A stretch of 64,000 nucleotides of DNA from Bacteriovoracia bacterium. Its GTDB lineage: Bacteria; Bdellovibrionota; UBA1018; JBFWNL01. Location of the stretch: positions 160,001 through 224,000 of the forward strand of contig JBFWNL010000002.1 of NCBI GenBank assembly GCA_050251055.1, read 5' to 3'. The stretch's first letter is position 1; each line of letters begins with the position of its first letter. The notes below the pieces were generated by a model. That model did not search any database. It was given only the letters and a program-made list of their open reading frames with translations, and was not told the origin of the DNA. A program made the translations under genes and the position numbers. Below are positions 12,615 through 38,506 of this stretch, one piece after another.

Positions 12615-13573
12615 CGTTGAGCGCCGCACCCTCCGAGTCGTCGGCCGTCCCGGGCGGCGCCGGCGCCTGGCACGCCGTTCGCGAGCAGTACAAACTTTAT
12701 CGAGAATTCGCTAAGTCCGGCGTCGTGGCCTTAGTGCTGATCAGCGTGCTCGGGGGTTACCTCGCGGGCCACCCCCTCGAAAAGACATTTGAATGGTCTC
12801 ATTTTCTTTGGACGCTGATTGGAATTTTCAGCTTGGCTTCGGGCTCCAGCGCCCTGAACCAACTCCAGGAAGTCGCGCACGATGCGCAGATGCCACGCAC
12901 CCAAAGCCGGCCTTTGCCGACCGGTCGCATTTCCCGGCGTCATGCCGTCGCCTTCTGCTTCGTCACTTTAGCCACGGGATTTTTGATCTTGGGCTGGCTT
13001 GATTCCCAAGTCATGTGGCTCGGTGCCGTCACCGTGTTTTTCTATAACTTCCTCTACACCCTTTGGTGGAAAAAGCATTGGGCGTTCGCCGCGATTCCCG
13101 GCGCGATTCCTGGCGCGCTTCCGATCCTGATGGGTTACGCAGCCGCTTCGGGCGAAGTCTTTACGCGCGGAGGATTGTACCTGTTCTTCATTTTGTTTTT
13201 CTGGCAGATGCCCCACTTCTGGGCCCTGGCCCTGCGGTATCAAAAAGACTACGCGTTGGGCGGCTTCCCCACGCTTCCGGTGGTGCTGGGCGCGGAAAAA
13301 ACCGTAGCCCAAATTACGATGTGGTCACTGGCATATGTGGCGCTCGCGATGATCGCCCCCTACTTCTTGATGGTAGGCGAGATCTACATGCTCGCCGCCA
13401 TCGGGGTCAGCGCGAAAATCCTCTGGGAGCTTCGCCGCTACGCCAAAGCCCCCGAAGGCAAGAACTGGCTACGCTTCTTCCTGTGGATCAACTTCAGTCT
13501 GATCATTCTGATCGCGGCGGCGGTCATCGACCTCTGGTGGATCTACCTCGCCGCGCCACTCATCATCGGTTAA
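12599..13573 (+). CDS. ctaB: Protoheme IX farnesyltransferase
   Basis: DAQMPRTQSRPLPTG, GAIPGALPILMG, WQMPHFWALA. Confidence 0.93.
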   Translation: MESGVALSAAPSESSAVPGGAGAWHAVREQYKLYREFAKSGVVALVLISVLGGYLAGHPLEKTFEWSHFLWTLIGIFSLASGSSALNQLQEVAHDAQMPRTQSRPLPTGRISRRHAVAFCFVTLATGFLILGWLDSQVMWLGAVTVFFYNFLYTLWWKKHWAFAAIPGAIPGALPILMGYAAASGEVFTRGGLYLFFILFFWQMPHFWALALRYQKDYALGGFPTLPVVLGAEKTVAQITMWSLAYVALAMIAPYFLMVGEIYMLAAIGVSAKILWELRRYAKAPEGKNWLRFFLWINFSLIILIAAAVIDLWWIYLAAPLIIG

Positions 13574-13791
13574 GTAAAAATCCCATCCTGCTTTTCTAGC
13601 TCAGCACAAACAATGTTGCGGGGCTTTCCGTGGTTGCGGGTCCACATCCTCAGGGGGACGCGCTTCCATGCGCTCAACCGCTCAGCGCCATCCTGGCCCG
13701 CGGATGCCCCCTGAGGATGTGGACCCGCAACCACGGAAAGACCTGGAACAAATTGACTCGAGCTAGAAAAGCAGGGTGGGATTTTTACTTA
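13571..13791. repeat. Long palindromic element, copy 1: outer arms 13571-13602/13760-13791 (31/32), inner arms 13624-13657/13707-13740 (34/34), conserved core 13651-13713
   Basis: Reverse-complement matching by eye; core is 57/63 identical to 38392-38454. Confidence 0.92.
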
Positions 13792-14636
13792 GTCGCGGTG
13801 AAGATGCCGTAGCGCATGCTGCGCGTTTCGTACGCGAGCCAGAGGCGGAAAACCGTCTTCGCGAACGCGCGGTCGGCGCTAGGGCTGGTGCGCAGGAACC
13901 TGCGCAAATCCGGTCGGGTGACCAACCCTTTGGTCAATCGCCACGCGCAGATGGGCCAGGTTTTTTTAACTTGCGACGATAACTCCTCGAATCGAACGTT
14001 CTTGAAGCGCGCGCGGGCGAAGAATTCGCGATACTCGGCCTCGCTGCCCATGCTAGGCAAACGGCCTTCGCGGCAAATGGGCTCAAGCAGGTGGCGCACT
14101 TCCCAGCGCGCGGGACGCTCCGTGGCCAACCACGCGCAAACCGCCATGCGGCCTCCGGGCTTTAAGGTACGATAAGCTTCCGAAAAAAACCGCGGCTTAT
14201 CCTCCATGTGCTCCGAGCTCTCAATACTCAAGACAATATCGAAATTTTCGTCGGGAAAGGAGTTCTGAAGCCAATCCTGCAGCAAGTATCGAGGACTATC
14301 CCCCAGGCCGGCATCCCGGCCTCGGGCACGCGCGTAGTCGAGCTGCGCGCTCGACAAGCTCAAGCCAATCACTTCCGCGCCATGACGCTGGGTTAGGAAA
14401 CGCGAAGTTCCTCCGTATCCACAGCCCACGTCGCAGACCCGATCGCCCGCGCGCACGTCCACCGCGCTCGCGACCTTCTCCAGCATCTGAACCACGGCCT
14501 CTTCTACGGTTTCCTCGCCATTCAGCCATAGGCCGTGGTGAAGATGCTCGCCCCAGAGCTCACGGTAATAGCGGTCTAAATCGTCGTAATGGCCAGATAT
14601 ATCGACGCCCTTTTGAATTTCGCGTGGGAAAATCAT
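13785..14636 (-). CDS. Class I SAM-dependent methyltransferase (gamma-tocopherol/sterol MT-like)
   Basis: WGEHLHHGLW, DVGCGYGG, SIESSEHMEDK, LKPGG. Confidence 0.88.
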   Translation of the reverse strand: MIFPREIQKGVDISGHYDDLDRYYRELWGEHLHHGLWLNGEETVEEAVVQMLEKVASAVDVRAGDRVCDVGCGYGGTSRFLTQRHGAEVIGLSLSSAQLDYARARGRDAGLGDSPRYLLQDWLQNSFPDENFDIVLSIESSEHMEDKPRFFSEAYRTLKPGGRMAVCAWLATERPARWEVRHLLEPICREGRLPSMGSEAEYREFFARARFKNVRFEELSSQVKKTWPICAWRLTKGLVTRPDLRRFLRTSPSADRAFAKTVFRLWLAYETRSMRYGIFTATK

Positions 14637-14674
14637 GCGTCTCAGTGAATCACAAAAACCCGGCCACTACCAGC

Positions 14675-15670
14675 TTAGGCGGCTTTTTTTACGATTTGCG
14701 CGGCGGTGACGCGGTTGCGCCCCCCGTGTTTGGATTGATAAAGCGCCTGGTCGGCGCGCTCAATAATCTCGGGCAAAGTATTTGCGTCGGACGGGAAGCT
14801 TGCCACCCCGACGCTGATGCTGACCGTGCCAAGCGGCTGGGTTTCGCGGTTAGGGAACGGGTAGTTCTGCACACCCGCGCGCAAGCGTTCGGCTAGGATC
14901 AAGGCGCCCTCCCAGTTCACGCCAGGCGCCAAAACCACAAACTCCTCGCCGCCGTAACGGGCCGGTAAATCCGTATTGCGACAAAGTTGCTGGAGCACGC
15001 GGGCTACCCCGCGCAGGACTTCGTCGCCGGCCGGATGTCCGTGGGCGTCGTTGTACTTCTTGAAGTGGTCGACGTCGCAGAAAATAATCGAGTAGGTCGT
15101 GCCGTAACGTTCGGAGCGCTCGTGTTCTTTCTTGGCTTCTTCGTTAAAATGCCGGAAATTCGCGAGCCCCGTCATCTCGTCCCGCACCGATAGCGCCTCG
15201 AGTTTCGCGTTTAGATGCTGCAGCTCCTTCAAATAGCGCTCGGCCTTCTCCTCCGCCTCGCGGATCGCGGTGACATCCTTGGCGATCACTTGAATAGCGT
15301 CGCTGCCGTCGAGCAGCTTCAGAAAGCACGCCGAAACATGCATCTTCAGGGCACGACCGTCGCGGGTGTTCCAATTGGAATCGAACTGCCTGGGATAGTA
15401 TCGGCGTCGCGCGATGCGCAGGTGCTTGGCGAACTGATCACGCTCCCGACGGTTCACGAAATTTAGGAGCGAATGTCCGCGCGCCTGGCTCGGGGCTACG
15501 GAAAGCGCCCGTTCGCTAGCCGAATTCGCGTCGAGAATGATGAAGTTATCCGGATCGATGAGGAAAGCCGAGTCCCACATCTTCTCGAAGATGTCCGAAT
15601 AGCGCGCCATCTGCGATAGCTTGCGGATCTTGTTCAGCGATGATTCGTCGTCTTCTAGTTGCTCCGACAT
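14675..15670 (-). CDS. PAS-GGDEF diguanylate cyclase
   Basis: DEMTGLAN, DVDHFKKYND, RNTD I-site, RYGGEEF; PAS-like N-terminus; RBS-supported start MSEQLEDD. Confidence 0.92.
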   Translation of the reverse strand: MSEQLEDDESSLNKIRKLSQMARYSDIFEKMWDSAFLIDPDNFIILDANSASERALSVAPSQARGHSLLNFVNRRERDQFAKHLRIARRRYYPRQFDSNWNTRDGRALKMHVSACFLKLLDGSDAIQVIAKDVTAIREAEEKAERYLKELQHLNAKLEALSVRDEMTGLANFRHFNEEAKKEHERSERYGTTYSIIFCDVDHFKKYNDAHGHPAGDEVLRGVARVLQQLCRNTDLPARYGGEEFVVLAPGVNWEGALILAERLRAGVQNYPFPNRETQPLGTVSISVGVASFPSDANTLPEIIERADQALYQSKHGGRNRVTAAQIVKKAA

Positions 15671-15775
15671 CCTCTCTATAGATCGACGAAAGCCCCTGAA
15701 ATCTGGAGGAATCCACGAGAAATCACGCGGTGTCAAAAGTCTGATACGGTGGAAGGAATATGCTAAAACCCCGGT

Positions 15776-16678
15776 ATGCCCCCCCGTTCGGCCACGCCCA
15801 CTTTCGATGAGTATTACTCCGCGCAGTACGGAGAGCGCTGGCCGGCGTTGAGGACTGCCCTCGCAGCCCATCGCCCCGGGGTTCTACGTCCCAATGGCTT
15901 CGCGGACCCCTCGTTCGTGGCGGAAGCCCTGGGCTCCCGAACGATGGCGGCGGCGTCAACGAATTGCCGGCTTGCCGATCCCGAGGAGGAACGGTTGGAG
16001 GCACCCTGCGACTCCAGGGGCCTGCGCGCCTGGTATCAGATGGATTTGGCGTCGGTACTCGCCGCCGAAACCCTCGATATTGAGCCGTTTCATCGAGTGC
16101 TCGATCTCTGCGCGGCACCCGGGGGAAAGGCCTTGATCCTAGCGGAAAAACTACGCACGCACGGGGGCCTCACTTTGAACGAACTCTCCTCGGCCCGTCG
16201 CGGGCGGCTCAAACAGGTTCTCACCGACTACCTTCCCGCCCCAAGACGCGAAGAAATTCGAGTAACTGGTTTCGACGCCGCCCAGTGGTGCCGCCACGAA
16301 AGTGAGGCGTATGATCGCGTACTGCTCGATGCTCCCTGCTCTTCTGAGGCTCACGTCGTGAGGCAACCCAGACACCTCCAGGCCTGGACGCCGAATCGTA
16401 GTCCCCAACTCGCCCAACGCCAGTATGCCCTACTCTCGTCGGCGCTGCGCCTACTCAAGCCGGGTGGCCAGCTGCTATACAGTACGTGTGCGATATCGAA
16501 ACTCGAAAACGATCGAGTTGTAGAGAGAGCCTTGGCGAACGCCACAAAGAAAAACTTTGCGTCTCGGGTCCTGCCTTTTCATTGGCCGCTGGGTGCTCCG
16601 ACTGAATTCGGGCAGATCGTACTCCCTGACCAAGACCAGTGGGGACCGCTGTACGCATGCCGCTTGGAAAGAATCTAA
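15776..16678 (+). CDS. RsmB/NOP2/RsmF family RNA m5C methyltransferase
   Basis: VLDLCAAPGGK, DRVLLDAPCS, YSTCAI. Confidence 0.9.
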   Translation: MPPRSATPTFDEYYSAQYGERWPALRTALAAHRPGVLRPNGFADPSFVAEALGSRTMAAASTNCRLADPEEERLEAPCDSRGLRAWYQMDLASVLAAETLDIEPFHRVLDLCAAPGGKALILAEKLRTHGGLTLNELSSARRGRLKQVLTDYLPAPRREEIRVTGFDAAQWCRHESEAYDRVLLDAPCSSEAHVVRQPRHLQAWTPNRSPQLAQRQYALLSSALRLLKPGGQLLYSTCAISKLENDRVVERALANATKKNFASRVLPFHWPLGAPTEFGQIVLPDQDQWGPLYACRLERI

Positions 16679-17241
16679 TCTTCGGGCGGAGCCGCCACGT
16701 CGTGTACTTCGAACTCAGGCACGATTGCCCCCCGGCACGCAGGCTCAAGCTGCTCGAGCCCAATAAGCTCACGAGCAACCACCAAACCGGGCCAATCCCG
16801 GGCCGAGTAGCTCCACGTCCCCCCAATGAATTGAGTGGCGGCAACGTAACCCACTTTTTCGTAACTCGTCCGTACCGGCGGACGCGGTAACGCGCGCACC
16901 GCCGCTAGGCAATTCTCGAGCTTATCCGGGACGACGCTGAGGGCCCCTGAAATTAACTGTTCCCGGATCGCTTCTGAAGTACTGGCCGGCGCGGGAAGCC
17001 CGAAAGCCCCACCCATTCCCTCCAAGTGCTCAACCGCCGGAACACATTCTTCCGGTCGCGCTACACCACCGGTCGCCGAGCGGTAGACTTCGCATATCTC
17101 TCTTATGGTGTGATCGATTGCGGTCTGTATTCCATTGCCCACCGCCGTCGCGCTCGAAGGGCCGCTAGAACTTTGAACGGCGCAAGCTGACACCGATGCC
17201 AGGAGTAAGCTACCCCAGGTCCGAACTAAACCGAATTTCAC
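16675..17241 (-). CDS. Cys-patterned lipoprotein with T-A-V-G-N motif (paralog B)
   Basis: Lipobox VSA-C; GPSSATAVGNG identical to the neighbouring gene. Confidence 0.72.
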   Translation of the reverse strand: MKFGLVRTWGSLLLASVSACAVQSSSGPSSATAVGNGIQTAIDHTIREICEVYRSATGGVARPEECVPAVEHLEGMGGAFGLPAPASTSEAIREQLISGALSVVPDKLENCLAAVRALPRPPVRTSYEKVGYVAATQFIGGTWSYSARDWPGLVVARELIGLEQLEPACRGAIVPEFEVHDVAAPPED

Positions 17242-17272
17242 GAATCCCCCAAACTGTCGCCCGAACTGAAAC

Positions 17273-17860
17273 CTAATCTGCTACCGGAATAGCGCTCTCG
17301 CTCGCCGATGGCGTCGCGACGAACACGCCGCTGCATGCCGCCCGCACGGTATCGCCATCTACCGGAACTACATTTGTACGAGAATCGATGGGTGGTCTCG
17401 CGACCATACTCACCCCGGCCGAACCAATCACCATAGGAACGGCCTGATAACCTGAAGTCTGGTAACTTTCCGCGACCGGACGGCACCGTAGGCTCTCGAC
17501 CGCGGTCAAGCACCCATCAAAGCGTGGTTCGGCGACCCGTAAGTCCCCTAACTCGAGCAGCCGACTGATGTCGGACGCAGTTTGAACCGTCTCGGGAAGC
17601 CCGAATCCGACAGGTCCCATGCCCGGAACGTGGGGAACCGTGTCCAAACATTCCGAAACAATCGCTAAGCCGCCGGTGCAAGCCTGGTAAACTTCGCAAG
17701 TGGCGGAGATGATGCGTTGGATCGCGTTCCGTTCTCCGTTCCCTACCGCGGTCGCACTAGAAGGACCGGAAGCCTGCTGGCTCGAACAGCCGCCCCCGAC
17801 AGCCAGCATCGAGAGGGCCGCGAAAGCTCCGAGATAACGGCGCGCGCGTACGTTCATCAT
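17273..17860 (-). CDS. Cys-patterned lipoprotein with T-A-V-G-N motif (paralog A)
   Basis: Signal peptide ending GGG-C; ATG overlaps the TIGR02147 stop (ATGA); GPSSATAVGNG. Confidence 0.72.
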   Translation of the reverse strand: MMNVRARRYLGAFAALSMLAVGGGCSSQQASGPSSATAVGNGERNAIQRIISATCEVYQACTGGLAIVSECLDTVPHVPGMGPVGFGLPETVQTASDISRLLELGDLRVAEPRFDGCLTAVESLRCRPVAESYQTSGYQAVPMVIGSAGVSMVARPPIDSRTNVVPVDGDTVRAACSGVFVATPSASESAIPVAD

Positions 17861-18723
17861 GCCGACTCCTTTTTGATTTTGTGTGAAATGGGGAAAAGCT
17901 GCAGGCAAAGCTGATAGACCCGGCCCACCGAGCCGCTGTCCTTCGCCACGAGTTCGAGCACCTGCTCCTTAAACTGCCGCGAGAGCTGCTTGATCTCCTG
18001 GGCGCATTCGTCGGAAACCGCGAGCGTGATCGCCGATAGATCCCGCTCCGTCTTGGCGAAACGGTCAATCGACTCCGAAGCGATGCGGATCATCTGCTTG
18101 TGATACTTCGTCACCAGGGCCGAAGTAACGTTGTCGGGAGTATTGACGATCTTCGCGCATTGAACGAGCTTTCCGCCTTCGTCCCGTTTGACCAGCCCCA
18201 GCTGCTCGAGATCGTCGAGGGCCTTACGGGCCTGGGCGGTCGAGATCGTGGGGTTTAGCTGTTGCGCGATGACCGCCGGATTTTCGTCAAAGCCGGGTTT
18301 ACCCACCATCTCGCGAATCGGGATGTAAAACCACTCCGCGAAGTAGTTGTACTGAGCTTCCTTAAGCGGATAGATCTTCTTGAAATGGGCGCTCAACACC
18401 AGGGCGGTGGCGAAGCGCTCACGCTCCTCGGAGTTGGCCGCCTGGTTCAAGCCCACGAGATTCGTGAAGAACGCGCCTTCGGGGCGAGAAAGGCCCATGG
18501 CGTCGATCGTTCGCTGCGTGCTCGCAGGCGAAAGGTTTCGCTTTCCCGAAATAATGAGTTTGAAAAAATTGGAAGAGCTGTAGCCCGCTGCCTTGGCGAA
18601 ATAGCGATAGGAAAAGAACCGCTTATGGGACTTCATATAGTTGTAGTAGTCCCCTAAAAAGACGCGGTAGTCGCTATATTCAAAAATATTGGGTTTCGAT
18701 GCCCCGACGGAACTTGGCCCCAT
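17857..18723 (-). CDS. TIGR02147/DUF4423 family HTH protein, copy 2
   Basis: IFEYSDYR..FSYRYFAKAAG..GKRNL; WFYIPIREM; VYQLCLQLFP. Confidence 0.88.
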   Translation of the reverse strand: MGPSSVGASKPNIFEYSDYRVFLGDYYNYMKSHKRFFSYRYFAKAAGYSSSNFFKLIISGKRNLSPASTQRTIDAMGLSRPEGAFFTNLVGLNQAANSEERERFATALVLSAHFKKIYPLKEAQYNYFAEWFYIPIREMVGKPGFDENPAVIAQQLNPTISTAQARKALDDLEQLGLVKRDEGGKLVQCAKIVNTPDNVTSALVTKYHKQMIRIASESIDRFAKTERDLSAITLAVSDECAQEIKQLSRQFKEQVLELVAKDSGSVGRVYQLCLQLFPISHKIKKESA

Positions 18724-19048
18724 AATTCCCCTTCGAATCTTAAGAATAGCCAATTAAACGAACGCGCATAATGTGTCCGATTTTACCCGGTCTTCCCCGC
18801 GATTCAGGCCCCCCGCACACGCCAGCACACACGATTCGGCGATGAAAACGCCTATTCGTGGTCCCGTCGAACGCCCTCCCGCATAGTGGAATCAGCAAGT
18901 GTCTGGGTCAATTTTTGATACCGACCCGACGCGCCGATCTCGGAATGGTCCGGGGTTCGGGGGCATCCACGGCTAAAGAAAGTCGCCCTCATTTAGCTTG
19001 GATGTCCCCGACGGCGTTGCTTGGCGTAAATTACTGGGGGATCGGGGC

Positions 19049-21109: not shown

Positions 21110-21122
21110 AGAAGCGAAACTA

Positions 21123-22328: not shown

Positions 22329-22334
22329 AATTTC

Positions 22335-22898: not shown

Positions 22899-22900
22899 GG

Positions 22901-23500: not shown

Positions 23501-23503
23501 GGA

Positions 23504-27983: not shown

Positions 27984-27995
27984 AATCGTCGCGTC

Positions 27996-28613: not shown

Positions 28614-28626
28614 GTGCACCCACCGT

Positions 28627-28658
28627 TTATAGTTATGTAATAATTGACAAAACTATAA
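28627..28658. promoter_or_regulatory. Candidate operator (11/12 inverted repeat, 8-bp spacer) just upstream of actA
   Basis: TTATAGTTATGT-N8-ACAAAACTATAA in an AT-rich intergenic stretch. Confidence 0.45.
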
Positions 28659-28771
28659 CTCACGTCGGGTGGACTTCTTAGGTTTTTTTTAGGAATGGAG
28701 AAAAAAATCCGGGTGGCCCAAGCGAATGGCGACACTGAATATCGTATTTGAAATTTTGCGCAACTGGAGCG

Positions 28772-29395: not shown

Positions 29396-29489
29396 CGCCC
29401 CGAGTTCTATCAAAGGGAGTAGTAGTTGACAATAAAAATATACTATTGCCGTAAATCAAAAATAGTAAAATAATTACAACAACTTAAGA

Positions 29490-31402: not shown

Positions 31403-31491
31403 GGAGCACAGATGTCAGGAGGGGAAAAGAAAGACGAAGGACAACTGATTCGCAACAAACCTCAAATGTCCGGGGATGCTGCGTCAATCAC

Positions 31492-32127
31492 TCAAGGGTC
31501 TAATTTTGAAAACTTTTTTAAAACTTCTTTAAACCTAGCTACACGCTTTCGCAATTGATCCTCACTGCGGACTTCCCGCAATTTCGTATCACTTGTGAGT
31601 CTATTCTCGCTCAAGAATTGAAGCATTCGCTTCCAGCTGGGCTCTCCGGCATGTTTATCGTCCCAACCTTCAAAAAGCTTTGAAAGCCGGTATAAGCAAT
31701 AGTCCTCTAAGAGATTCCCCTTTCGGGCGTGCTCCCACTCGATTCCAATTAGGCCTTTTTGAAGTAATGACGGATTCTTAATAGCTTGCTTTTTTTGCTT
31801 CTGATGAAGACTTGAAATTATTTCAACTTGGCAGTTAAGTGCCATTTCACAAGCCTGAAGGGTGCTAATAATTTTTCCTATCTGCGCAACATCGATACTA
31901 TAGTGCAACTCTAATTTCGTTTTTTTTAGACTTCCCACTAGACTTGATACACTTTCAATATCTGCCTGCAGTTTTGCTTTGGCGTCCAACAGTGAATCTA
32001 GTTCTCGAAGCGAGAGAAACGCGCGGTAAGTCGTCAAAATACTAGAAGACTCTGTATTGAACTCCGCCTCGGTTAGTGGAGGCACTGAAACAACCCTAAG
32101 TCCTTTCCCTAAGGAGATCGGCCACAC
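31492..32127 (-). CDS. Hypothetical phage/satellite protein
   Basis: 211-aa ORF overlapping the XRE gene; no recognised motif. Confidence 0.55.
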   Translation of the reverse strand: MWPISLGKGLRVVSVPPLTEAEFNTESSSILTTYRAFLSLRELDSLLDAKAKLQADIESVSSLVGSLKKTKLELHYSIDVAQIGKIISTLQACEMALNCQVEIISSLHQKQKKQAIKNPSLLQKGLIGIEWEHARKGNLLEDYCLYRLSKLFEGWDDKHAGEPSWKRMLQFLSENRLTSDTKLREVRSEDQLRKRVARFKEVLKKFSKLDP

Positions 32128-32317
32128 TCATGTTCAATCCTTCTGCAATTGCCAGTAAGGTAGAATAGCGGGGATCTTTTTTTCCCTTTTCGATATCGGA
32201 CAGATTCCCCTTTGAGAGATCCATCTCATAAGCGAGTTTCTCTAAGGTAATCCCACGCTTGCGTCGCAATAAAGAGATTCTTTCGCCTAGCTTTAGCAGG
32301 GCCGGTCTGGATTTCAC
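32096..32317 (-). CDS. XRE-family (controller protein-like) HTH regulator
   Basis: LGERISLLRRKRGITLEKLA..SKGNLSDIEKGKKDPRYSTLLAIAEGL. Confidence 0.88.
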   Translation of the reverse strand: MKSRPALLKLGERISLLRRKRGITLEKLAYEMDLSKGNLSDIEKGKKDPRYSTLLAIAEGLNMSVADLLRERT

Positions 32318-32350
32318 TCATTCAAGGCTACGCATCGAGCTTGCAAAGTA

Positions 32351-32383
32351 GTTCGCTATAGCGAACAATTCGTTATAGCGAAC
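32351..32383. promoter_or_regulatory. Tandem palindromic operators upstream of the XRE gene
   Basis: Perfect GTTCGCTATAGCGAAC (32351-32366) followed by 14/16 copy ATTCGTTATAGCGAAC (32368-32383). Confidence 0.7.
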
Positions 32384-32445
32384 TCAGGCTCTATGGCGTA
32401 TTCCAGCCATTTGAATTCCGGACTCTCATAAAGAGGAGGCACGAA

Positions 32446-32958
32446 TTGTTAGGTCTAATTGGGACTCTTGCGATACTTGGCGGAGCAGCGCTTCTTTTCT
32501 TCTCAGCAATACTCTTGTTATTCAAAAGAGAAAGCCGTTATCCAAAACGCTTAGCATTGCTTGGTTTCGTTACATTGCTCGCTGGGGCCATCTCAGTAGG
32601 TCTAGAAAAAGACACTCGTCAGCCAAAGGCGCTAAGCATTGAGGAGTGGAAGCAACATCGAGAGTACATCGAATCGTTTTCTAAGCGCGTATTCGTAAGC
32701 TTAACCGCTCATGAGATGTACGAAAAGGCGAATGAGTACCTATCAGACCCTTACATCAAATCATGCAGGTACGGTGGGTGCGCAGAGTTTCGTCAAATGC
32801 TACGTGAAATCATGGATGCAACAGAAGACGGCAGAATTTCTCCAAAAGAAGTCGGTGCAAATAAAGGCTTGGGGAAATTCGTAAAAGACGCGCTAGATAA
32901 AGGAGAGAAAGACATAAACAAAAGCATTAAACCTGCGCCCCGTCCTGATGGGAAATAG
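32446..32958 (+). CDS. Hypothetical membrane protein (two N-terminal TMs)
   Basis: GAGGAGG RBS; two hydrophobic helices; divergent from the XRE gene. Confidence 0.65.
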   Translation: MLGLIGTLAILGGAALLFFSAILLLFKRESRYPKRLALLGFVTLLAGAISVGLEKDTRQPKALSIEEWKQHREYIESFSKRVFVSLTAHEMYEKANEYLSDPYIKSCRYGGCAEFRQMLREIMDATEDGRISPKEVGANKGLGKFVKDALDKGEKDINKSIKPAPRPDGK

Positions 32959-33247
32959 ATTCTTTGTAATCTACAGCATACTTCACCAAATCAGTAAAAC
33001 TCTCAATCAGAGGCAAGCGATCACCTACATCAAATTCGATAGCCTTGCGCTTGGGGTAAATGTATCCCAGCAGCTGGACCAATAGATTCGCCTGCTCCTT
33101 CGGTGACAATTGAGGCAATAAATCACAAATCCTCGAAACCGGTTCAACTCCCCCTGCTCGCAATGCCTCTACCAGGAGATGTGTTTTTTTATTAGGAACC
33201 CCTTTTCTACGTCCTCCGGTTTTAGGGAGCCCCGCTGGCCTGCTCAT
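32927..33247 (-). CDS. Putative terminase small-subunit-like DNA-binding protein
   Basis: PKTGGRRKGVPNKKT N-terminus and YIYPKRKAIE, typical of small phage packaging-locus proteins. Confidence 0.6.
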   Translation of the reverse strand: MSRPAGLPKTGGRRKGVPNKKTHLLVEALRAGGVEPVSRICDLLPQLSPKEQANLLVQLLGYIYPKRKAIEFDVGDRLPLIESFTDLVKYAVDYKESISHQDGAQV

Positions 33248-33359
33248 TTCCTCTATTCCCTTCTACTTTAGATACGGGCATCCAATCGGACATTGCATCG
33301 CGGCCAAGTAGCAATTCCCACACCTCCAACCCACCTAAAGGTCCGCCACGCACCCAGAT

Positions 33360-33408
33360 ATTTATAAACTATATTAATTTATTATATAAATTAATATAGT
33401 TTATAAAT
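33360..33408. repeat. Perfect AT-rich inverted repeat, 23-bp arms, 3-nt loop
   Basis: ATTTATAAACTATATTAATTTAT-TAT-ATAAATTAATATAGTTTATAAAT. Confidence 0.9.
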
Positions 33409-33482
33409 CTAATCATCCACAAACTCAACGCGTTGTTCTTGCACGATGATTTCAATATATAAAAGTGGATCAAAACCATTTA

Positions 33483-33496
33483 GTATAATATTATAC
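33483..33496. promoter_or_regulatory. 14-bp perfect palindrome containing TATAAT, candidate -10 element/operator of the TA-like operon
   Basis: GTATAATATTATAC upstream of the toxin-like ORF. Confidence 0.5.
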
Positions 33497-33531
33497 GATA
33501 TGCTACATAAAATTGAAATTTATGTCGTATA

Positions 33532-34008
33532 TTGGTACAAGTGGTTCCCGGTGGCTGCATATATGGAAGATGCATGCTTCAGGGGGACAGTTTGGAAGAA
33601 GATCCTAACCACGATTTTTCGGCCTTCGAGAAGGCATGTCAAAGCCATCCCGAAACCGTGGTTGTTCCCGATGATACGGAAAGCGACGCAAGGAGACATT
33701 TCCGCATCAACAACTCAGACGACCTACTAGCCTTTATTGGGCGAGGCGGTTTGAAGGACCATAAATTCGTCAAACGAGACACTTGGCGTTTTGGAAAGGA
33801 AGCTTATGGTGTCGAAGTCAATTTGGATATTTATGACTTCTGGGAAGGGGAAAAGTTTGGTTACCTGTCCCTTGGACGCCATCCGGAGAACAGCATGTGG
33901 GTAATCAAATCCTTTCACGAAAATACAAACCCGAACCCAAGAGCCAAACCTGTTTTCAAGGTCACAAAGAGGATTGTTTTTAAAAAAGGCGTACCCCATG
34001 AAGAATAG
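33532..34008 (+). CDS. Putative MqsR/RelE-like toxin (start uncertain)
   Basis: DIY..YLSL..WVIKSFH pattern resembling the MqsR C-terminus; directly upstream of a Zn-finger-HTH gene. Confidence 0.55.
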   Translation: MVQVVPGGCIYGRCMLQGDSLEEDPNHDFSAFEKACQSHPETVVVPDDTESDARRHFRINNSDDLLAFIGRGGLKDHKFVKRDTWRFGKEAYGVEVNLDIYDFWEGEKFGYLSLGRHPENSMWVIKSFHENTNPNPRAKPVFKVTKRIVFKKGVPHEE

Positions 34009-34576
34009 TTGCCAATTTTGCGGCTCAGCCGAAACAGAAATTCTATCCGTCGAGAAAGAAGGCGCGCTTCCTGATAATACTGCTTTTAAATATCACGCTC
34101 AGGTGTTGCGCTGTTCTAATTGCCAATTAAAAGTCCCAGTCAAGCAATCAAGCGACGCGGAATATGATCAAGCTTACGTGCAAGCACAAGCTGAGAGTGT
34201 TGAAAAAATAAGCGAAAGACTGTCCGAAGTAGGATTAACAATGGCATCTATTGAGCGCAGTTTCGGGATCCCTCAGCGCACGATTATGAGATGGAAATCC
34301 AAAGGTTGCTCCGCCGCTGGCTTTTCTTTGATGCACCTTCTTAATGTGTACCCCTGGCTGACTAAAATCGCTGATCATAACTACGACCCTCGATTTGCTT
34401 CTAAAGAAGTACTTCGACAAGCTGCGGAAATATACAATGGACCGAGCTCTATTGAGGTCGCGGAGCATCAATTACTCGGATCACCAAGCATTAGCCTGAA
34501 CGAAAGGCATCTCCGACTTGTACCTAAGAGTAATTCTTCAGAAGATCCGCAAATATACCAAGTGGGGAGCGGATGA
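33998..34576 (+). CDS. MqsA-like Zn-ribbon plus HTH antitoxin with a C-terminal extension
   Basis: CQFC...CSNC; LTMASIERSFGIPQRTIMRW HTH; about 60-aa tail. Confidence 0.65.
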   Translation: MKNSCQFCGSAETEILSVEKEGALPDNTAFKYHAQVLRCSNCQLKVPVKQSSDAEYDQAYVQAQAESVEKISERLSEVGLTMASIERSFGIPQRTIMRWKSKGCSAAGFSLMHLLNVYPWLTKIADHNYDPRFASKEVLRQAAEIYNGPSSIEVAEHQLLGSPSISLNERHLRLVPKSNSSEDPQIYQVGSG

Positions 34577-35010
34577 AGGTCACAAACATAATATTCTGCG
34601 ACGATATCCGGCGAGAGATCAATAACAAGCACACTCTCGTTGGCTGTTATTCAGATCGTATTCTCATTACACCACGCAACGGGGATATGAAATGGCCGGT
34701 GGCTGTAAAACTTGGGATCTTTATTACTCTCATACGCGAGTCAGATGACCCCAAGTTCAACACCTTTGCTTTAGAGTTTTTCGACTCAGAAGAATCTCTA
34801 GCAAAAGTCGAAGGAAATCTAGACGGCTTAGACCAGGGTCGCCCCATCAACATTATGTTTGTCTTACCGCTGGTATTTAAACGTCCAGGTCCTTTAAGTG
34901 GGAAGTTTGATTTTTCGGAGAAAGACGGAGTTACTATTACACTAAAGCCCGAACTTAACTTCCGACTCGAAATCGCGAAACCCGCTCAACAGCTAAATCC
35001 AACAGTATAA
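34573..35010 (+). CDS. DUF6941-like beta-rich protein
   Basis: IIFCDDIRREINNKHTLVGCY N-terminus; ATGA coupling to the antitoxin. Confidence 0.6.
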   Translation: MKVTNIIFCDDIRREINNKHTLVGCYSDRILITPRNGDMKWPVAVKLGIFITLIRESDDPKFNTFALEFFDSEESLAKVEGNLDGLDQGRPINIMFVLPLVFKRPGPLSGKFDFSEKDGVTITLKPELNFRLEIAKPAQQLNPTV

Positions 35011-35077
35011 AGCCTTCAACCAGCCTCCTGAAACAATAGTGGAAGAAGACGAGCTCTAGAGTGAGGAATGCCCCGGT

Positions 35078-35968
35078 TTGAGTACAGACAGCACCGAAGT
35101 AGAATTCGGAGAAACACCAGAATGGAAGCAATTTGCCAGCAAGTGGACCATTCCGGACGAAATATCGCCAGACCTCTTACTGTATCATTACACAAGCACA
35201 GGGGCCGCGAATTCCATGTTTCTATCTAAGCAGTTTTGGGCAACCTACGCAAAACACTCAAATGACTCTACCGAATTTTCTCATGGAATAGATTTATTTA
35301 TCGAGGAGATTAAAGCATTTCAATTCTGCTTTGTATCGCCAAACAATAGAGACCTTATAGAAGAGCTGATAGGGTTCTTAACTGAGGAGAAAACATCTCC
35401 AAAAATTAAGCCTTTCATTTTTTGCCTTTCAGAGCTGGGCGATTTACTAAGCCAATGGCGTGGCTACACACCAAATAGCTCCGGTGTGGCGATCGGTTTT
35501 CAATGCAAAGAACTTGAATTTGATGAATTTCATACATTAAAAAAAGTGGTGTACGACGACGGGACAAAAAGACAAAGGGCCCGATCAATCATTCAAGAGT
35601 TTGACAAACTAGTTCAAGGCGAACTCGCTAAGTTCGGAAACCACATATCTCCTCCGCACGGCCGCAGTCTTTTTTTTAAGCTATTGCAGGCAATATATGT
35701 TCAAGCGGCATGCTTTAAACACGAGGCATTCAACGAAGAAAAAGAATGGAGGATTGTTATTTATTGCGCTGACAAGAGTCAAATACTTAGCCGAAATCGG
35801 GGAATCGATCTTGTTCTATACACAACATGGGATTTCAAGGCTTCAGCAGTTGCGAGTGTCGTTTGTGGCCCTAAATGCAGTTCTTCCACAAATGAAACTC
35901 TTGAATCCCTTGTAGATAAGAAACAATTTAACTTCAAAATCGCAAGATCATCGATTCCATTTCAGTAA
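35078..35968 (+). CDS. DUF2971 domain protein
   Basis: LYHYTS, NDSTEF, FCLSE..DLLSQWRGY..GVAIGF, FKHEAFNEEKEWRI. Confidence 0.85.
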   Translation: MSTDSTEVEFGETPEWKQFASKWTIPDEISPDLLLYHYTSTGAANSMFLSKQFWATYAKHSNDSTEFSHGIDLFIEEIKAFQFCFVSPNNRDLIEELIGFLTEEKTSPKIKPFIFCLSELGDLLSQWRGYTPNSSGVAIGFQCKELEFDEFHTLKKVVYDDGTKRQRARSIIQEFDKLVQGELAKFGNHISPPHGRSLFFKLLQAIYVQAACFKHEAFNEEKEWRIVIYCADKSQILSRNRGIDLVLYTTWDFKASAVASVVCGPKCSSSTNETLESLVDKKQFNFKIARSSIPFQ

Positions 35969-36016
35969 AATCACCTATCGTATGGTTTGAGCGTGCATAT
36001 CCGCACTACCAATTCA

Positions 36017-36913
36017 CTACTTCACTCCCGATGCTATCGGCTTATGTCGGACTTCAATTCCAAGTGAAAAATCTGAGAAACATCCAAAAATCTCTTCGAA
36101 TTCAGACCTATTTTGAAACAATTCCTTATAACTACGATTATGTTGATTCGCTACCCAAATGAACTTGGACTTTATATTCGAGTTCTCAGAATGCGCAATG
36201 ATTTCATCCGAGACTGCGTGTCTGTGTACCAAGTAATTTAGCTTTTCCTTAATAAACGTTTTTTCGAATGAATCGTTTGGCAAAAATTTTTCAAAATCTG
36301 AAAAAGGGAGCACAAAATCTGCCTCGCGAAATCCCTTTAAATAGTCAATGTATCTAAATCCATCTGAATCTTGGCACGTGAACTGATTAAGATACCTTAC
36401 CCAATCATCTGGAAACATGTGCTTTCCGGCAACCAGATGAAATCTATTTAGGGCACTCTCCCCCAGTATTACTCGTGGTACACGCGCAGATTTAGTCTCT
36501 AGGAGATATGCTTCTGAAAGCGCGGGACTAACCAGATAGTCATTTTTCTTAAAATAATCTCCGTAAGTTATAGCTCCACGTATCCAGACTCTAGAAAGAC
36601 TAAGGTGCGCAAGTGACCTGATTAGATCCTTCAAAAAGTGGTCGCATGCACTTTTAATGGTTATATCTGCAGCAATTATCACTGAGTCACTAATCACCGT
36701 AACTTCTGGCTTATATAGGGCACCGCTTTGGTTTGGCGTACTGAAACGAAACAGTTCCAACGCATGAATTAACTCCGATAACTTGCGTTCCTTGAGATGG
36801 TCTTTAAATCCCAGGATATCCAGGTAGGCCACAACCCGTTTTGAATATTCATGACTAACTACTTTTTGCTCTACTGACTTTTCCATACTTTCCCAGTTTC
36901 GAGGTGAAATCAC
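36017..36913 (-). CDS. Class III nucleotidyl-cyclase-like protein
   Basis: VAYLDILGFK, ISDSVII, IRGAITYG, PALSEAYLLE..A..PRVIL, DSDG..YIDYL. Confidence 0.7.
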   Translation of the reverse strand: MISPRNWESMEKSVEQKVVSHEYSKRVVAYLDILGFKDHLKERKLSELIHALELFRFSTPNQSGALYKPEVTVISDSVIIAADITIKSACDHFLKDLIRSLAHLSLSRVWIRGAITYGDYFKKNDYLVSPALSEAYLLETKSARVPRVILGESALNRFHLVAGKHMFPDDWVRYLNQFTCQDSDGFRYIDYLKGFREADFVLPFSDFEKFLPNDSFEKTFIKEKLNYLVHRHAVSDEIIAHSENSNIKSKFIWVANQHNRSYKELFQNRSEFEEIFGCFSDFSLGIEVRHKPIASGVK

Positions 36914-37851
36914 TCAAATAATTGGTGATTCCTTCCATTAGGTTTTATTTGCAAAAAGTTTTTATCTCGAAAAAAAAGAAACTTACACGGAGATTTAGAG
37001 ATTTCAGCATTCAATTTTGAAACTGAATCTGCACTCAATATAGCTTTTTTTTGGCCAGGTTCAAAAGTTCCGGACAGACAGATTCTTGGACTTAGTGGAA
37101 CTATAAGTTCGTTAGACTCAGACCCAAAACCACGTCCATGCTTTATCCTCACTCGCCTTGACCAATGCACCAACACCGGCTGATCGCTTGTAATAAATTG
37201 ACCCGAAGAAGCGACGAGAATGCACCAATCACGCTTTGCCAATAATGGAGCGAGCCGGCGGGCATAGTCCAATGTCAGTGATAGAATGTAGTTCTGAGTA
37301 GTTTTGAATTTATAATGCTTAGAATTAGCAATGTCCTTAAGCTGCTCCAAATTCATCCTATTACGCTCTGGAGTATTCATTCGATCATACAAGACTTTTA
37401 GGTCCTGAGGCGTACCCTTGGCTGCAAAAGCTTGCGCCCAATCCTTAGCAGTGCGGTCGACAACCTCTGCTGCATGCTCTCTAGACAAAGGCCCCCTCAT
37501 GGCCAGAAATGCGATGAAGGTCCATAACCTAGCCAATTGCACAGGGTCCTCTGGCAGCTTCTCTTCCTGGATGATCTTTCGAAGAACTGGGGCCGCGGCT
37601 CCCTCCATAGGAGCGAGCATTTTCGTTTCAATTCCAAACTCGTCATCGATACCCTCTGATGCGTCTAGACGGTAAAAATCACGAATATGCCCTACGTTAG
37701 AGACCGAAGTCTTAAAAGATGTCTTCTTTTCCTTGCTAAAAACCTGAATTATACGGCTATCCTTCTCAGTATCTGTGAAGTTAATCAGATAGCACTCGGG
37801 CACATAGTGATGCTTTCGGGGGACAGCCATGTTGTTCCTTATCCTACGCAT
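36910..37851 (-). CDS. DUF4238 domain protein (putative anti-phage)
   Basis: KHHYVPECYLINF, FITSDQPV, VPLSPRICL. Confidence 0.85.
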   Translation of the reverse strand: MRRIRNNMAVPRKHHYVPECYLINFTDTEKDSRIIQVFSKEKKTSFKTSVSNVGHIRDFYRLDASEGIDDEFGIETKMLAPMEGAAAPVLRKIIQEEKLPEDPVQLARLWTFIAFLAMRGPLSREHAAEVVDRTAKDWAQAFAAKGTPQDLKVLYDRMNTPERNRMNLEQLKDIANSKHYKFKTTQNYILSLTLDYARRLAPLLAKRDWCILVASSGQFITSDQPVLVHWSRRVRIKHGRGFGSESNELIVPLSPRICLSGTFEPGQKKAILSADSVSKLNAEISKSPCKFLFFRDKNFLQIKPNGRNHQLFE

Positions 37852-37906
37852 TCGAGCCTATGTCTTGAGCGTTCGACTTAGGCCACTCAATTAATAGGAA
37901 GGTCAG

Positions 37907-38134
37907 ATGACTCATGTAATCAAAATAGGGACGATTATAACTTACGGTCCGAGCTCAAATGCAAAAACCCAAAAAACCGGCCATGTTACTGACGTATGGC
38001 AGCGTGGAGACGAGATTCTAATAACAGTAAAGATCAACAGCATGCCCATAGAGGAATCAAAATCCGGTTACCCAGAAAACTCTCACTCCACCTATACGGA
38101 CATCTTTGTAGAAACCCCCGCAGGGAAAAACTAA
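37907..38134 (+). CDS. Small hypothetical protein
   Basis: 75-aa ORF with AGGAAGG RBS. Confidence 0.45.
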   Translation: MTHVIKIGTIITYGPSSNAKTQKTGHVTDVWQRGDEILITVKINSMPIEESKSGYPENSHSTYTDIFVETPAGKN

Positions 38135-38294
38135 CTAAAGCACAGCAGTCACTCTGGGGAAGCGCTGGGGAATCTAGAACCTAAAAACACCCCAAAATAA
38201 CCAATAACAACCAAGGATCCAGGCCCACCGATTTCCGCTGTGTTTTGTTTATTTTCAGTAACTTAAGTCCCATGCCTAAGTCCTGATTGGTTTA

Positions 38295-38350
38295 CTCGAA
38301 AGCGTGTGTGGGGAAACCCACCGTGAGTTCGAATCTCACTCTCTCCGCCA
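38295..38350 (+). tRNA. 3' half of tRNA-Ser(CGA); att-site fragment, not an intact gene
   Basis: Anticodon loop CTCGAAA, long variable arm GTGGG-GAAA-CCCAC, T-arm GTGAG-TTCGAAT-CTCAC, acceptor TCTCTCC-G-CCA; 5' anticodon strand, D-arm and 5' acceptor strand absent. Confidence 0.88.
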
Positions 38351-38506
38351 TCACTTTTCCTTTTTCCCGTTTTAAAAAAGACGAAGACTGGCAGGGGGAC
38401 GCGCTTCCATGCGCTCGACCCCTCAGCGCCTTCCTGGCCCGGGGACGCCCCCCGCCAGTCTTCGTCTTTTTTAAAACGGGAAAAAGGAAAAGTGATGGCG
38501 GAGAGA
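38340..38506. repeat. Long palindromic element, copy 2: perfect 53-bp arms 38340-38392/38454-38506 around the conserved core
   Basis: Exact reverse complement; arm begins with the last 11 nt of the tRNA fragment; core matches 13651-13713. Confidence 0.92.

Follow-up and report, generated by a model that had tools for sequence, protein, structure and literature searches.

Bidirectional Rho-independent terminators stand right after genes, often between convergent ones, with an orientation tied to transcription and a G+C-rich stem flanked by an A-run and a T-run. The elements described here resemble them in all these respects, the two flanking runs being found in 15 of 28 copies. They differ from intrinsic terminators in that the "loop" is a conserved, covarying three-way junction of 49–60 nt rather than 3–8 nt, and in that the stems extend 30–90 bp past the T-run and into the upstream gene.

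REP, BIME and REPIN sequences, which RAYT (Y1 HUH) transposases move, are likewise dispersed, extragenic and hairpin-forming, often lie at gene 3′ ends and reach tens of copies per genome. The conserved part of a REP is its stem, with a conserved 5′ tetranucleotide. Here, in contrast, it is the tip that is conserved, whereas the stem differs from locus to locus, so that the layout is the reverse of that of REPs and MITEs, as a preliminary description of the locus had put it; moreover, there is a strong link to tRNA genes and no PF01797 gene. MITEs and the large palindromic repeats Correia/CREE and ERIC/IRU are also small non-coding repeats of 100–250 bp; they form long hairpins and can serve as terminators or RNase III sites. 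Unlike in MITEs, the inverted arms differ between copies in most genomes (those of G106 have arms in common, as in a MITE), no transposase relative was identified, and no target-site duplication was noticed at locus 1, where the boundaries were examined.

A tRNA 3′ trailer can have a function of its own, as in the 3′ETS-leuZ sponge. Like this sponge and the E. coli tRNA-linked repeats named in PMC8144298, the present element is a conserved non-coding module directly behind tRNA genes, and at tRNA-Arg(acg) and tRNA-Gln(ttg) the tRNA 3′ end is repeated in direct orientation at some distance downstream. The sequences are not related; the core-adjacent copy of the tRNA end is inverted here, and the module is also found behind protein genes. 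Monttinen and Loytynoja (2022, PMC8794818) described hairpins made by template switching (quasipalindrome correction), by which a perfect stem can arise in a single event and then be maintained. Common to both cases are arms that are perfect reverse complements, multi-base changes mirrored between them and inverted repeats that grow; that study deals with single events in RNA genes, whereas here one conserved core is tied to the majority of the long perfect palindromes in the genome.

Two Elements in the Analysed Window

The window is a stretch of 64,000 nt from Bacteriovoracia bacterium GCA_050251055.1 (contig JBFWNL010000002.1, positions 160,001–224,000, forward strand). The carrier belongs to the Bdellovibrionota and is described as a predatory-type bacterium. 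The features of the two loci are collected in Table 1.

Table 1. Features of the two elements and their neighbouring genes (positions within the window).
Feature	Position	Strand	Remarks
UbiA-family prenyltransferase gene, ctaB-like	12599–13573	+	Pfam UbiA, E = 3.5e-56
Locus 1, outer left arm	13571–13602		Pairs with 13760–13791; 32 nt, 97% complementary
Locus 1, internal bubble, left side	13603–13617	+	Mostly unpaired in the fold; asymmetric bubble
Locus 1, inner left arm	13618–13650		Locus-specific; perfect run of 34 bp
Core copy 1	13651–13713	+	Three-way junction; model R1 match
Core copy 1, closing stem G5/C5	13653–13657 with 13707–13711
Core copy 1, hairpins			Hairpin 1 with 6-nt loop; hairpin 2 on inner helix, 5-nt loop
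Locus 1, inner right arm	13714–13746		Inverted-arm pairing and fold
Locus 1, internal bubble, right side	13747–13759	+	Fold and long-form alignment
Locus 1, outer right arm	13760–13791		Contains stop and last codons of the convergent gene
SAM-dependent methyltransferase gene (CMAS/Methyltransf_11 type)	13785–14636	−	Convergent with the UbiA gene
tRNA-Ser 3′ fragment (T arm to CCA)	38325–38350	+	26 nt
Locus 2, left arm	38340–38391		Opens with the 11 terminal nt of the tRNA-Ser fragment; A-run beside the core-proximal stem
Core copy 2	38392–38454	+	Model R1 match
Locus 2, right arm	38455–38506		Inverted copy of trailer and tRNA 3′ end; T-run after the core-proximal stem

Locus 1 separates the UbiA-family gene, which has relatives in Bdellovibrionota MAGs, from the methyltransferase gene (Pfam CMAS, 4.6e-26; Methyltransf_11, 3.5e-22). 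Together with the closing stem, its inner arms pair 13614–13657 with 13707–13750 (44 nt, 93% complementary). The outer left arm opens with the UbiA stop codon (13571–13573), and the stop of the convergent gene lies at 13785–13787 on the minus strand; the earlier observation that the outer arms hold both stops is thus confirmed. The locus is of a "long form" and has no paired A-run and T-run beside the core.

At locus 2, the arms with the closing stem join 38340–38398 to 38448–38506 (59 nt, 98% complementary, with a perfect run of 53 bp). ARAGORN reports no whole tRNA in the 64,000-nt window, and the T-arm and 3′-end sequence of the fragment recurs at the ends of the tRNA-Ser genes of the genome (Ser-tga compared in full; the last 20 nt compared for Ser-tga, Ser-gga and Ser-cga). 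Being limited to loops of 3–8 nt, a simple terminator scan makes no call at locus 1 or locus 2.

What the preliminary description had read from these two loci was reproduced: the 57 of 63 identities between the cores, the perfect runs of 34 bp (with the 32-nt outer arms besides) and 53 bp, the penetration of the locus 2 arm into the last 11 nt of the tRNA fragment, and the G5/C5 closing stem enclosing two hairpins, which ViennaRNA returns as the same structure. The statement that the arms are unrelated between loci is correct for this pair but not in full, since the outer arm and internal bubble of locus 1 share a loose consensus with long-form tRNA trailers.

A Dispersed Family with a Conserved Fold

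Both loci belong to a hitherto undescribed family of structured elements, dispersed in the genome and found across one Bdellovibrionota order. The carrier genome holds about 28 copies of the core, 26 of them matches to model R1 and two truncated ones found by BLAST. The locus 1 core is the best match (97.1 bits, E = 4.2e-17) and the locus 2 core scores 94.8 bits. A broader model, R2, has matches in 35 of the 116 genomes of the order, spread over 27 of its 70 genera; the weak ones near E = 1e-4 may include false positives. By this model there are 24 copies in the carrier and 1–17 in each of 34 other genomes, and none were found in 81. The Rfam search of the core matched no family. The preliminary description, which had seen in two copies a dispersed element with a structured core and arms peculiar to each locus, is supported beyond the pair from which it was drawn.

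The conserved part, about 59 nt long, folds into a three-way junction in which a G-rich/C-rich closing stem encloses two small hairpins. Both loops follow N-U-C-(C/G)-(A)-U, a motif kept across genera. In the 17 copies of the carrier's own alignment (A1), 93.1% of cells pair and 14 of 24 pairs have changed on both sides, which none of 500 shuffles reaches. A pair singled out earlier as co-varying, core positions 30 and 51 (columns 36 and 57), is indeed GC in nine copies, CG in five, and UA, GU and another combination in one each. When 39 copies from the carrier and other genomes were aligned by fitting to the model, 93.6% of cells were paired and 20 of 24 pairs were double-changed (again 0 of 500 shuffles). 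The deep covariation and the loops conserved across genera suggest a selected fold. Folded by themselves, the two cores give z-scores of only −2.08 and −1.55, which is weak, and the whole 223-nt element of locus 1 reaches −160.5 kcal/mol with z = −19.8.

Placement at Gene 3′ Ends

Seventeen copies are linked to tRNAs, standing behind 16 of the 45 tRNA genes, and all 17 have the orientation of the tRNA. The distance from tRNA to core is 24–59 nt, with one exception of 341 nt behind a tRNA-Gln fragment. Non-tRNA copies are sense to the upstream gene in every decidable case (the pair C1:358774+/C1:359140−, C2:429310−, C1:639480− and C8:175431+). The palindrome begins at or inside the 3′ end of that upstream gene. 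Core orientation does not track the sign of the GC skew. The layout of a bidirectional terminator, counted above, was defined as A4+ to the left and T4+ to the right within 40 nt of the core; 13 of 28 copies are without the pair of runs.

The sense placement at 3′ ends, the lack of a link to GC skew, the terminator layout and the covariation together indicate that the core would have a role at the transcript level and not only as a nicking site. The earlier reading of the element is upheld in part, for the conserved core and the locus-specific arms; the copies, however, are not randomly inserted and sit sense at gene 3′ ends.

Arms as Palindromes

Perfect inverted repeats with arms of at least 18 bp and loops of at most 110 nt number 35 in the genome. 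The core forms the tip of 22, two more carry a divergent core variant, and only about 10 are without a tip of the core family. Among the further loci in relatives, 26 of 40 have perfect arms of at least 20 bp, each unique to its locus. In the carrier, perfect runs reach up to 53 bp. Across about 1241 matched arm positions there are 13 isolated mismatches: four that would be G·U in the sense strand, five that would be G·U in the antisense strand and four that are neither. With so few mismatches and no bias towards G·U among them, the arms resemble palindromes at the DNA level more than stems of an RNA. Bidirectional use alone could select against G·U pairs, so that the missing wobble bias speaks only in part against selection as RNA.

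Three cores (w13651, C13:21136 and C7:136535) differ by one base in 59, but from the closing stem outwards their arms show no relation to one another. It follows that the core spreads without its arms and that the arms are made locally, which fits fold-back or template-switch copying. The copies of G106 have their short arms in common, together with an extension on the right-hand side, as copies of an ordinary small repeat would. Little or no arm is present at the cores after Leu-gag, after Asn and at C1:358774. Where a tRNA stands upstream, the arms penetrate it by 6–14 nt. The coreless trailers of Arg-cct, Arg-tcg, Arg-acg and Pro-ggg likewise contain the tRNA 3′ end in inverted form, so gene ends are copied in the absence of the core as well. 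In G000 and G074, conserved bubble motifs are bordered on the outside by an arm that is conserved and on the inside by one that is unique.

Possible Origin and Role

The explanation that we favour, with about even confidence, is that of an undescribed 3′-end (terminator-tip) element, with arms that arise and stay perfect because the flank is copied by fold-back or template switching. Core and adjacent stem would act on the transcript as a 3′-end module, either a bidirectional intrinsic terminator or a 3′-end stabiliser, with the conserved loops as a putative binding platform for a protein or RNA. If termination takes place at the T-run, the outer arms are untranscribed and thus without an RNA-level explanation. 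At the DNA level, the very stable core may allow a strand, nascent or resected, to turn back on itself and take the flank just passed as its template (intrastrand template switching), which would create the arms, lengthen them and keep them perfect. Such a copy would overwrite the unconstrained side and so mirror the constrained one, a tRNA 3′ end or a stop codon. As E. coli palindrome work suggests, a large non-palindromic centre may let long palindromes survive. This model does not account for the near-identical cores at unrelated loci or for the bubble motifs. Also counted against it are the coreless trailers that mirror a tRNA end, the few cores with little or no arm, the weak z-score of the core alone and the copies without paired runs.

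The near-identical cores amid unrelated arms would be expected if the element were non-autonomous mobile DNA, its core recognised and moved by an enzyme whose gene lies elsewhere (HUH nuclease, tyrosine recombinase or other), and if insertion at transcript or tRNA 3′ ends itself yielded the inverted flank copy. This is essentially the reading of the preliminary description, and we regard it as unlikely, though worth keeping in view. It gains from the strongly variable copy number, from the absence of the UbiA-linked copy from 80 related ctaB loci, from the shared arms and extension in G106, from the eight tyrosine recombinases of the genome and from C14, where a cassette with the core precedes a direct copy of the tRNA-Gln 3′ end, an arrangement like that left by site-specific integration. 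The co-occurring HUH, RAYT or TnpA gene for which the preliminary description proposed to look did not turn up: in the genome, at 93.5% completeness, neither a Y1/HUH transposase nor a reverse transcriptase was found. No empty site was found and insertion with flank copying was not observed; nor was a target-site duplication noticed at the locus 1 boundaries. Furthermore, orientation follows transcription and not GC skew, the fold appears to be selected, and tRNA-Val(tac) bears a long-form element both here and in G101, from another family of the order.

It is rather improbable that the arms came first, as ordinary local terminator hairpins, whose loops afterwards received the core at the exact spot by insertion or conversion, with no flank copying. 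Some insertion sequences and group IIC introns do target hairpins, the elements lie where terminators are expected, and tRNA-Arg(cct) has a coreless 25-bp perfect palindrome of the same design. However, complementarity runs as far as the closing stem and leaves no trace of an earlier loop, perfect arms of 30–53 bp far exceed terminator stems and enter the tRNA, and coreless long perfect arms are nearly absent.

To an equally small degree we credit selection of the long stems as RNA, for example as RNase III substrates in tRNA precursor processing or in the destruction of read-through transcripts, with compensatory evolution maintaining them. At tRNA-Val(tac), the architecture is kept between the carrier and G101 though the sequence is not, and in paralogous tRNA-Ser trailers changes in one arm appear, by eye, to be mirrored in the other. 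Yet G·U is as rare as A·C (4 vs. 5 in about 1241 pairs), the outer arms lie beyond the T-run in many copies, and the stem would compete with the tRNA acceptor stem.

Very improbable is a function of the opposite strand, as a putative CsrA-binding decoy or a 3′-UTR site of convergent genes. The antisense loops, A-(N)-GGA closed by C and G, resemble CsrA-binding hairpins; in most copies they read AGGAU or AUGGAU, and several copies are located between convergent genes. But orientation is fixed to the upstream gene and not to the convergent one, the gene downstream of several tRNA-linked copies is co-directional, and GGA is lost in seven of 17 own copies (G for the second C, loop 2) and in several G074 and G098 copies (G in loop 1). 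Fold-back chimeras of assembly have nothing but the palindromic shape in their favour and can be set aside, given some 28 consistent copies with each arm joined to a different unique flank, the same architecture in dozens of independent assemblies, and Logan contigs from two DNA runs, which may be the source samples, that carry both locus 1 arms, each with its own flank and 0 differences.

In general, on the reading of a 3′-end element with copied arms, the element probably marks transcript ends, and the module would be the usual ending of stand-alone tRNA genes in the carrier genome. The link of the core to most long perfect palindromes suggests a sequence that promotes template switching or makes it tolerable.

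The two elements in the window

The preliminary description had pointed to two structured cores with long inverted arms that differ between loci, and its account of the layout was borne out. The cores turned out to be 57/63 identical by sequence comparison, the predicted fold is the one proposed there, and both pairs of arms were recovered (table below). The outer arms of locus 1 do contain the stop codons of both convergent genes, and the left arm of locus 2 takes in the last 11 nt of the tRNA-Ser 3' fragment; ARAGORN finds no whole tRNA in the window. The complete element of locus 1 (223 nt) has a folding energy of -160.5 kcal/mol (z = -19.8). The core alone folds only about 2 sd better than shuffled sequences (z about -2), a weak thermodynamic support, so that the case for its fold rests on covariation.

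Some further features were seen near locus 2. The low-GC3 stretch that terminates at the orphan tRNA-Ser fragment carries DUF2971 and DUF4238 genes and one ORF without a Pfam match, and probably represents what is left of an island that had integrated at a tRNA-Ser gene. Two tandem repeats follow the right arm, and related sequence lies behind the elements of tRNA-Ser(tga), Ser(gga) and Val(gac).

Coordinates of the features (window positions, or contig and position in the source genome unless another genome is named)
Feature	Location	Strand	Remark
UbiA-family gene	window 12599-13573	+	
Methyltransferase gene	window 13785-14636	-	convergent with the UbiA-family gene
Locus 1 outer arms	window 13571-13602 with 13760-13791		32 nt, 97%; enclose an asymmetric bubble
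Locus 1 inner arms	window 13614-13657 with 13707-13750		closing stem counted in
Locus 1 core	window 13651-13713		
Loose contig ends, run X2	window 13711-13712		
Low-GC3 stretch	window 35078-38350		
tRNA-Ser 3' fragment	window 38325-38350		
Locus 2 arms	window 38340-38398 with 38448-38506		perfect run of 53 bp
Locus 2 core	window 38392-38454		
Tandem repeats	window 38507-38690		two, about 85 nt each
Core copy	C1:358774	+	faces C1:359140
Core copy	C1:359140	-	faces C1:358774
Core copy	C2:429310	-	
Core copy	C1:639480	-	
Core copy	C8:175431	+	
Divergent core variant	C3:92376-92507		behind tRNA-Asp; arms of 39 bp
Divergent core variant	C3:91400-91521		arms of 34 bp
R2 match to divergent variant	C3:91422-91499		E = 7.3e-6
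54-nt hairpin tip	C6:135586-135695; downstream of C2:456209		tRNA-Pro(ggg) and tRNA-Pro(tgg)
Nested palindromes with assembly gap	C1:75772-75893		run of 10 N
Core B	C8:134195-134279		
Core B, further copies	C8:96454, C8:7351, C14:12003, C3:92203, C3:91224, C1:68060, C4:155347, C4:84240		
Duplicated trailer unit	C8:134046-134600		behind tRNA-Arg(acg)
Core B between two elements	C14:11850-12266		behind tRNA-Gln(ttg)
tRNA-Leu(taa) with integrase-like ORF	L166 (G101:C101), bases 1740-2100		related genome

Fold and covariation of the core

A G-rich/C-rich stem closes the core, which contains a 4-bp hairpin and an inner helix bearing a 3-bp hairpin. In an alignment of 17 copies from the source genome 93.1% of the cells pair and both sides have changed in 14 of 24 pairs, a result reached by none of 500 shuffles; when the structure is slid by 1-3 columns, pairing falls to 35-50%. 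The clearest covarying pairs are columns 18-27 (GC 10, CG 7), 32-61 (AU 8, GC 8, GU 1) and 36-57 (GC 9, CG 5, UA 1, GU 1, other 1). Another alignment, of 39 copies, takes in the source genome, eleven further genomes of the order and a metagenome contig; in it 93.6% of the cells pair and both sides have changed in 20/24 pairs, but it was fitted to the model and is thus biased towards the structure. Both hairpin loops read N-U-C-(C/G)-(A)-U across genera, and their stems vary. Judging from this covariation, which is expected of a structured RNA or single-stranded DNA motif, the core is a selected fold.

On the minus strand the loops of the two window cores give C-AGGAU-G and AUGGAA, which resemble the repeated CsrA-binding motif of CsrB-type RNAs; the antisense GGA is missing from one loop in many copies. 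A divergent variant with UCCU and UUCCU loops and longer hairpins was also found at two places, each time between perfect arms.

Size and distribution of the family

A search for further copies had been suggested, and it was productive. BLAST and a covariance model built from 17 of the genome's own copies (R1) yielded 26 model matches and two truncated copies, about 28 in all, in a genome of 3.77 Mb (21 contigs, about 58% G+C, completeness 93.5%). The genome belongs to Bdellovibrionota and is the sole representative of its family and genus among the genomes compared; the identity of its UbiA-family protein to proteins from MAGs of Bacteriovoracaceae and Oligoflexia does not exceed 62%. R1 detects the element in 9 of 116 genomes of the order. 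A broader model, R2, extends this to 35/116 genomes and 27/70 genera, with 24 matches in the source genome and up to 17 in others, the weakest of which may be false. Some of the first 20 loci fetched from relatives have tRNA-Leu(taa), Val(tac) or Asp genes directly upstream. Among 40 further loci, 26 carry perfect arms of at least 20 bp, three are preceded by a tRNA gene that shares their orientation (Arg-cct, Arg-tct, Met) and another two by apparent tRNA 3' fragments, as judged by eye. A degenerate 20-mer of the core, searched as an exact pattern in metagenome contigs, returned 34 loci, none of them from close relatives; seven loci (8 matches) fit R1.

The expectation that no described Rfam family would match also held: Rfam 15 gives no match in the window at gathering thresholds, and at permissive E-values seven copy-bearing loci return only tRNA and sub-threshold, miRNA-like long-hairpin matches.

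Placement at the 3' ends of genes

The source genome has 45 tRNA genes and one tmRNA gene according to ARAGORN, and a core lies 24-59 nt downstream of sixteen tRNA genes; stand-alone tRNA genes in this genome usually end with it. In the case of tRNA-Gln(ttg), a further core follows at 341 nt, after a direct copy of the gene's 3' end. The 17 tRNA-linked cores all have the orientation of the tRNA. The locus 2 core lies behind the tRNA-Ser fragment and the remaining ten copies behind protein genes, six of them in four gaps between convergent genes. Wherever only one reading is possible (the five core copies listed in the table), the core is sense to the preceding gene. The orientation of the cores is unrelated to the sign of GC skew and goes with transcription rather than replication.

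A terminator should lie where a transcription unit ends and have a defined orientation, as the cores do. In 15 of 28 copies the core-proximal stem is preceded by an A-run and followed by a T-run, both within 40 nt of the core, as in a bidirectional intrinsic terminator. A simple promoter and terminator scan called nothing at either window locus; for terminators it accepts loops of 3-8 nt, which the core as a loop exceeds.

The arms are nearly perfect palindromes

About 1241 arm positions match, in perfect runs of up to 53 bp, with 13 isolated mismatches, of which four would be G·U in the sense strand and five in the antisense strand, the other four being neither. Structured RNAs normally tolerate many G·U pairs. 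Here such pairs are near absent and show no strand bias, and G·U mismatches are no commoner than A·C ones, as template switching would predict; this points to a DNA-level process. Selection on both strands may instead account for the scarcity of G·U pairs.

A perfect run of at least 12 nt spans the gene end and reaches 2-14 nt into the tRNA at 15 of 46 tRNA or tmRNA genes, as against 0.05% of 2000 random positions. The ends of some core-free tRNA genes (Arg-cct, Arg-tcg, Arg-acg, Pro-ggg) are mirrored too. Long perfect palindromes are still associated with the core. Of the 35 perfect inverted repeats in the genome (arm length 18 bp or more, loop length up to 110 nt), 22 have the core at the tip, two the divergent variant (tRNA-Asp, C3:91400) and one a different 54-nt tip. 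Cores with little or no arm occur after Leu-gag, after Asn and at C1:358774, and truncated cores behind Lys-ttt and Leu-cag resemble, by eye, deletions between short direct repeats.

The 54-nt tip is common to tRNA-Pro(ggg) and tRNA-Pro(tgg) and stands between palindromic arms, which are perfect over 28 bp at the former and decayed at the latter. On contig C1 an assembly gap lies inside nested perfect palindromes, and the assembly there is probably unreliable.

Copies share flanking sequence in register only as chance-level matches of 5-6 nt. As guides or spacers the arms do not qualify: 22 of them were searched for a second site in the genome and the two of the window against phages, with no match and no meaningful match, respectively.

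Core and arms have separate histories

The cores of locus 1, C13:21136 and C7:136535 differ by one loop base over 59 nt and agree at all positions where other family members covary. Between the three copies the arms are unrelated as far as the closing stem; within each copy, left and right arm are complementary as far as this stem. Near-identical cores with unrelated arms also occur in other genomes, such as G098, G074 and G007. We infer from these comparisons that the core spreads apart from its arms. A simple insertion of the core into an older hairpin is disfavoured, because arm and core directly adjoin, with no remnant of a former loop between them.

A long form was recognised at locus 1 and in the trailers of tRNA-Ala(ggc), Leu(caa), Ala(cgc), Val(tac), Phe, Lys(ctt) and a tRNA-Gln fragment. 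It runs from an outer arm of loose consensus through a bubble with a conserved motif on each side and a unique inner arm to the core, and thus sets conserved unpaired modules between unique, perfectly paired segments. Genome G074 has the same layout with its own conserved outer sequences, and tRNA-Val(tac) carries a long-form element both in the source genome and in G101, from another family of the order.

The core is absent from all 80 ctaB loci of relatives, which makes the locus 1 copy a lineage-specific gain. The downstream regions of these loci are not syntenic with locus 1 and are therefore unusable as empty sites. Neither they nor the same-genus pair G101 and G102 provided an empty site: this pair offers no clean orthologous comparison, the orthologous tRNA-Val being disrupted and replaced in G102. 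In G101, the ORF directly behind tRNA-Leu(taa) resembles, by eye, the beginning of a phage-type integrase; in G102 the place behind the same tRNA is taken by an element.

A second module near tRNA genes

Another conserved GC-rich module of about 85 nt (core B) is present in nine copies in the source genome and has no match in Rfam. Eight of the nine lie 50-355 nt from a tRNA gene, in its orientation; the left flank is an inverted copy of the T-loop and 3' T-stem of that tRNA, and the right flank a direct copy. In front of the module stands a small hairpin containing a TATAAT-like box. Core B shares the logic of the core family, namely a conserved centre between locus-specific inverted arms. 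Behind tRNA-Arg(acg) the trailer unit is tandemly duplicated, each unit ending with a direct copy of the tRNA 3' end, and tRNA-Gln(ttg) is followed by an element, core B, a direct tRNA 3' fragment and a second element. Both arrangements resemble site-specific integration or the tRNA-linked repeats of E. coli.

Discussion

An assembly artefact is ruled out for locus 1: in Logan contigs of two landfill metagenome DNA runs (X1, X2), possibly the source samples, each arm is joined to its own unique flank with 0 differences. The contigs break only inside the repeated core, because the repeat exceeds their word size. In run X2, the contig after the core resembles the right arm of C7:23149 with several bases different, and may be a strain variant.

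As had been remarked, the layout is the reverse of REP/REPIN elements, whose conserved part is a short palindromic stem common to the copies: here the arms vary and the centre is conserved. MITEs have conserved terminal inverted repeats and target-site duplications. Most arms here are locus-specific, but the outer arms of the long form have a loose consensus in common and the copies in G106 have common arms. No target-site duplication was noticed at the boundaries of locus 1. A look for a HUH/RAYT/TnpA gene had been suggested; the Y1 HUH transposase family (PF01797) has no match in the 93.5% complete genome; the same search found the family in 6 of 14 control genomes. Reverse transcriptase (PF00078), the mark of a retron, group II intron or DGR, likewise has no match in the source genome. 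Eight tyrosine recombinases are encoded there.

The preliminary description had proposed a non-autonomous element or nicking site that copies its flanks in inverted orientation. One part of this stands, in that the arms look like DNA-level copies. Rather than a plain nicking site, the element is best regarded as a hitherto undescribed structured module of transcript 3' ends that is strongly linked to tRNA genes. We propose two layers. In the first, the core and proximal stem most likely act on the transcript as a 3'-end module, a reading supported by gene-end placement, fixed sense orientation, the A-run/T-run layout and covariation with conserved loops; the conserved twin loops point to a putative binding partner. 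In the second, intrastrand template switching (fold-back copying) would most likely both create the arms and maintain them as perfect copies. A single event of template switching has been shown to yield perfect stems as well as compensatory changes of several bases (PMC8794818), and inverted-repeat homogenisation and growth are likewise attributed to it (PMC13100816, PMC8604942, PMC5941160). Such a copy would overwrite the side that is free to change; the constrained side, with its tRNA end or stop codon, would be what the arm reflects. The persistence of long palindromes may depend on a large asymmetric centre, as work on E. coli would suggest.

A bolder reading, which we regard as rather unlikely, would make the 59-nt core a self-spreading palindrome seed: a minimal mobile hairpin whose landing sites are transcript 3' ends, chiefly those of tRNA genes, where, without a transposase of a known kind, host replication or repair folds back and copies the flanks until the growing palindrome meets constrained sequence. 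If true, it would amount to a new mode of DNA mobility and palindrome formation in bacteria, active across an order of Bdellovibrionota.

For annotation, the elements matter in that they overlap stop codons and tRNA 3' ends and that short-read assemblies break at the core. A single sequence lies behind 22 of the genome's 35 long perfect palindromes, which makes the template-switch model directly testable. If the reading as a 3'-end module with fold-back-copied arms holds, the family would be a new structured motif at transcript 3' ends, absent from Rfam and found in 35 of the 116 genomes searched, and would offer a natural system for the origin, growth and tolerance of long perfect palindromes in bacterial chromosomes.
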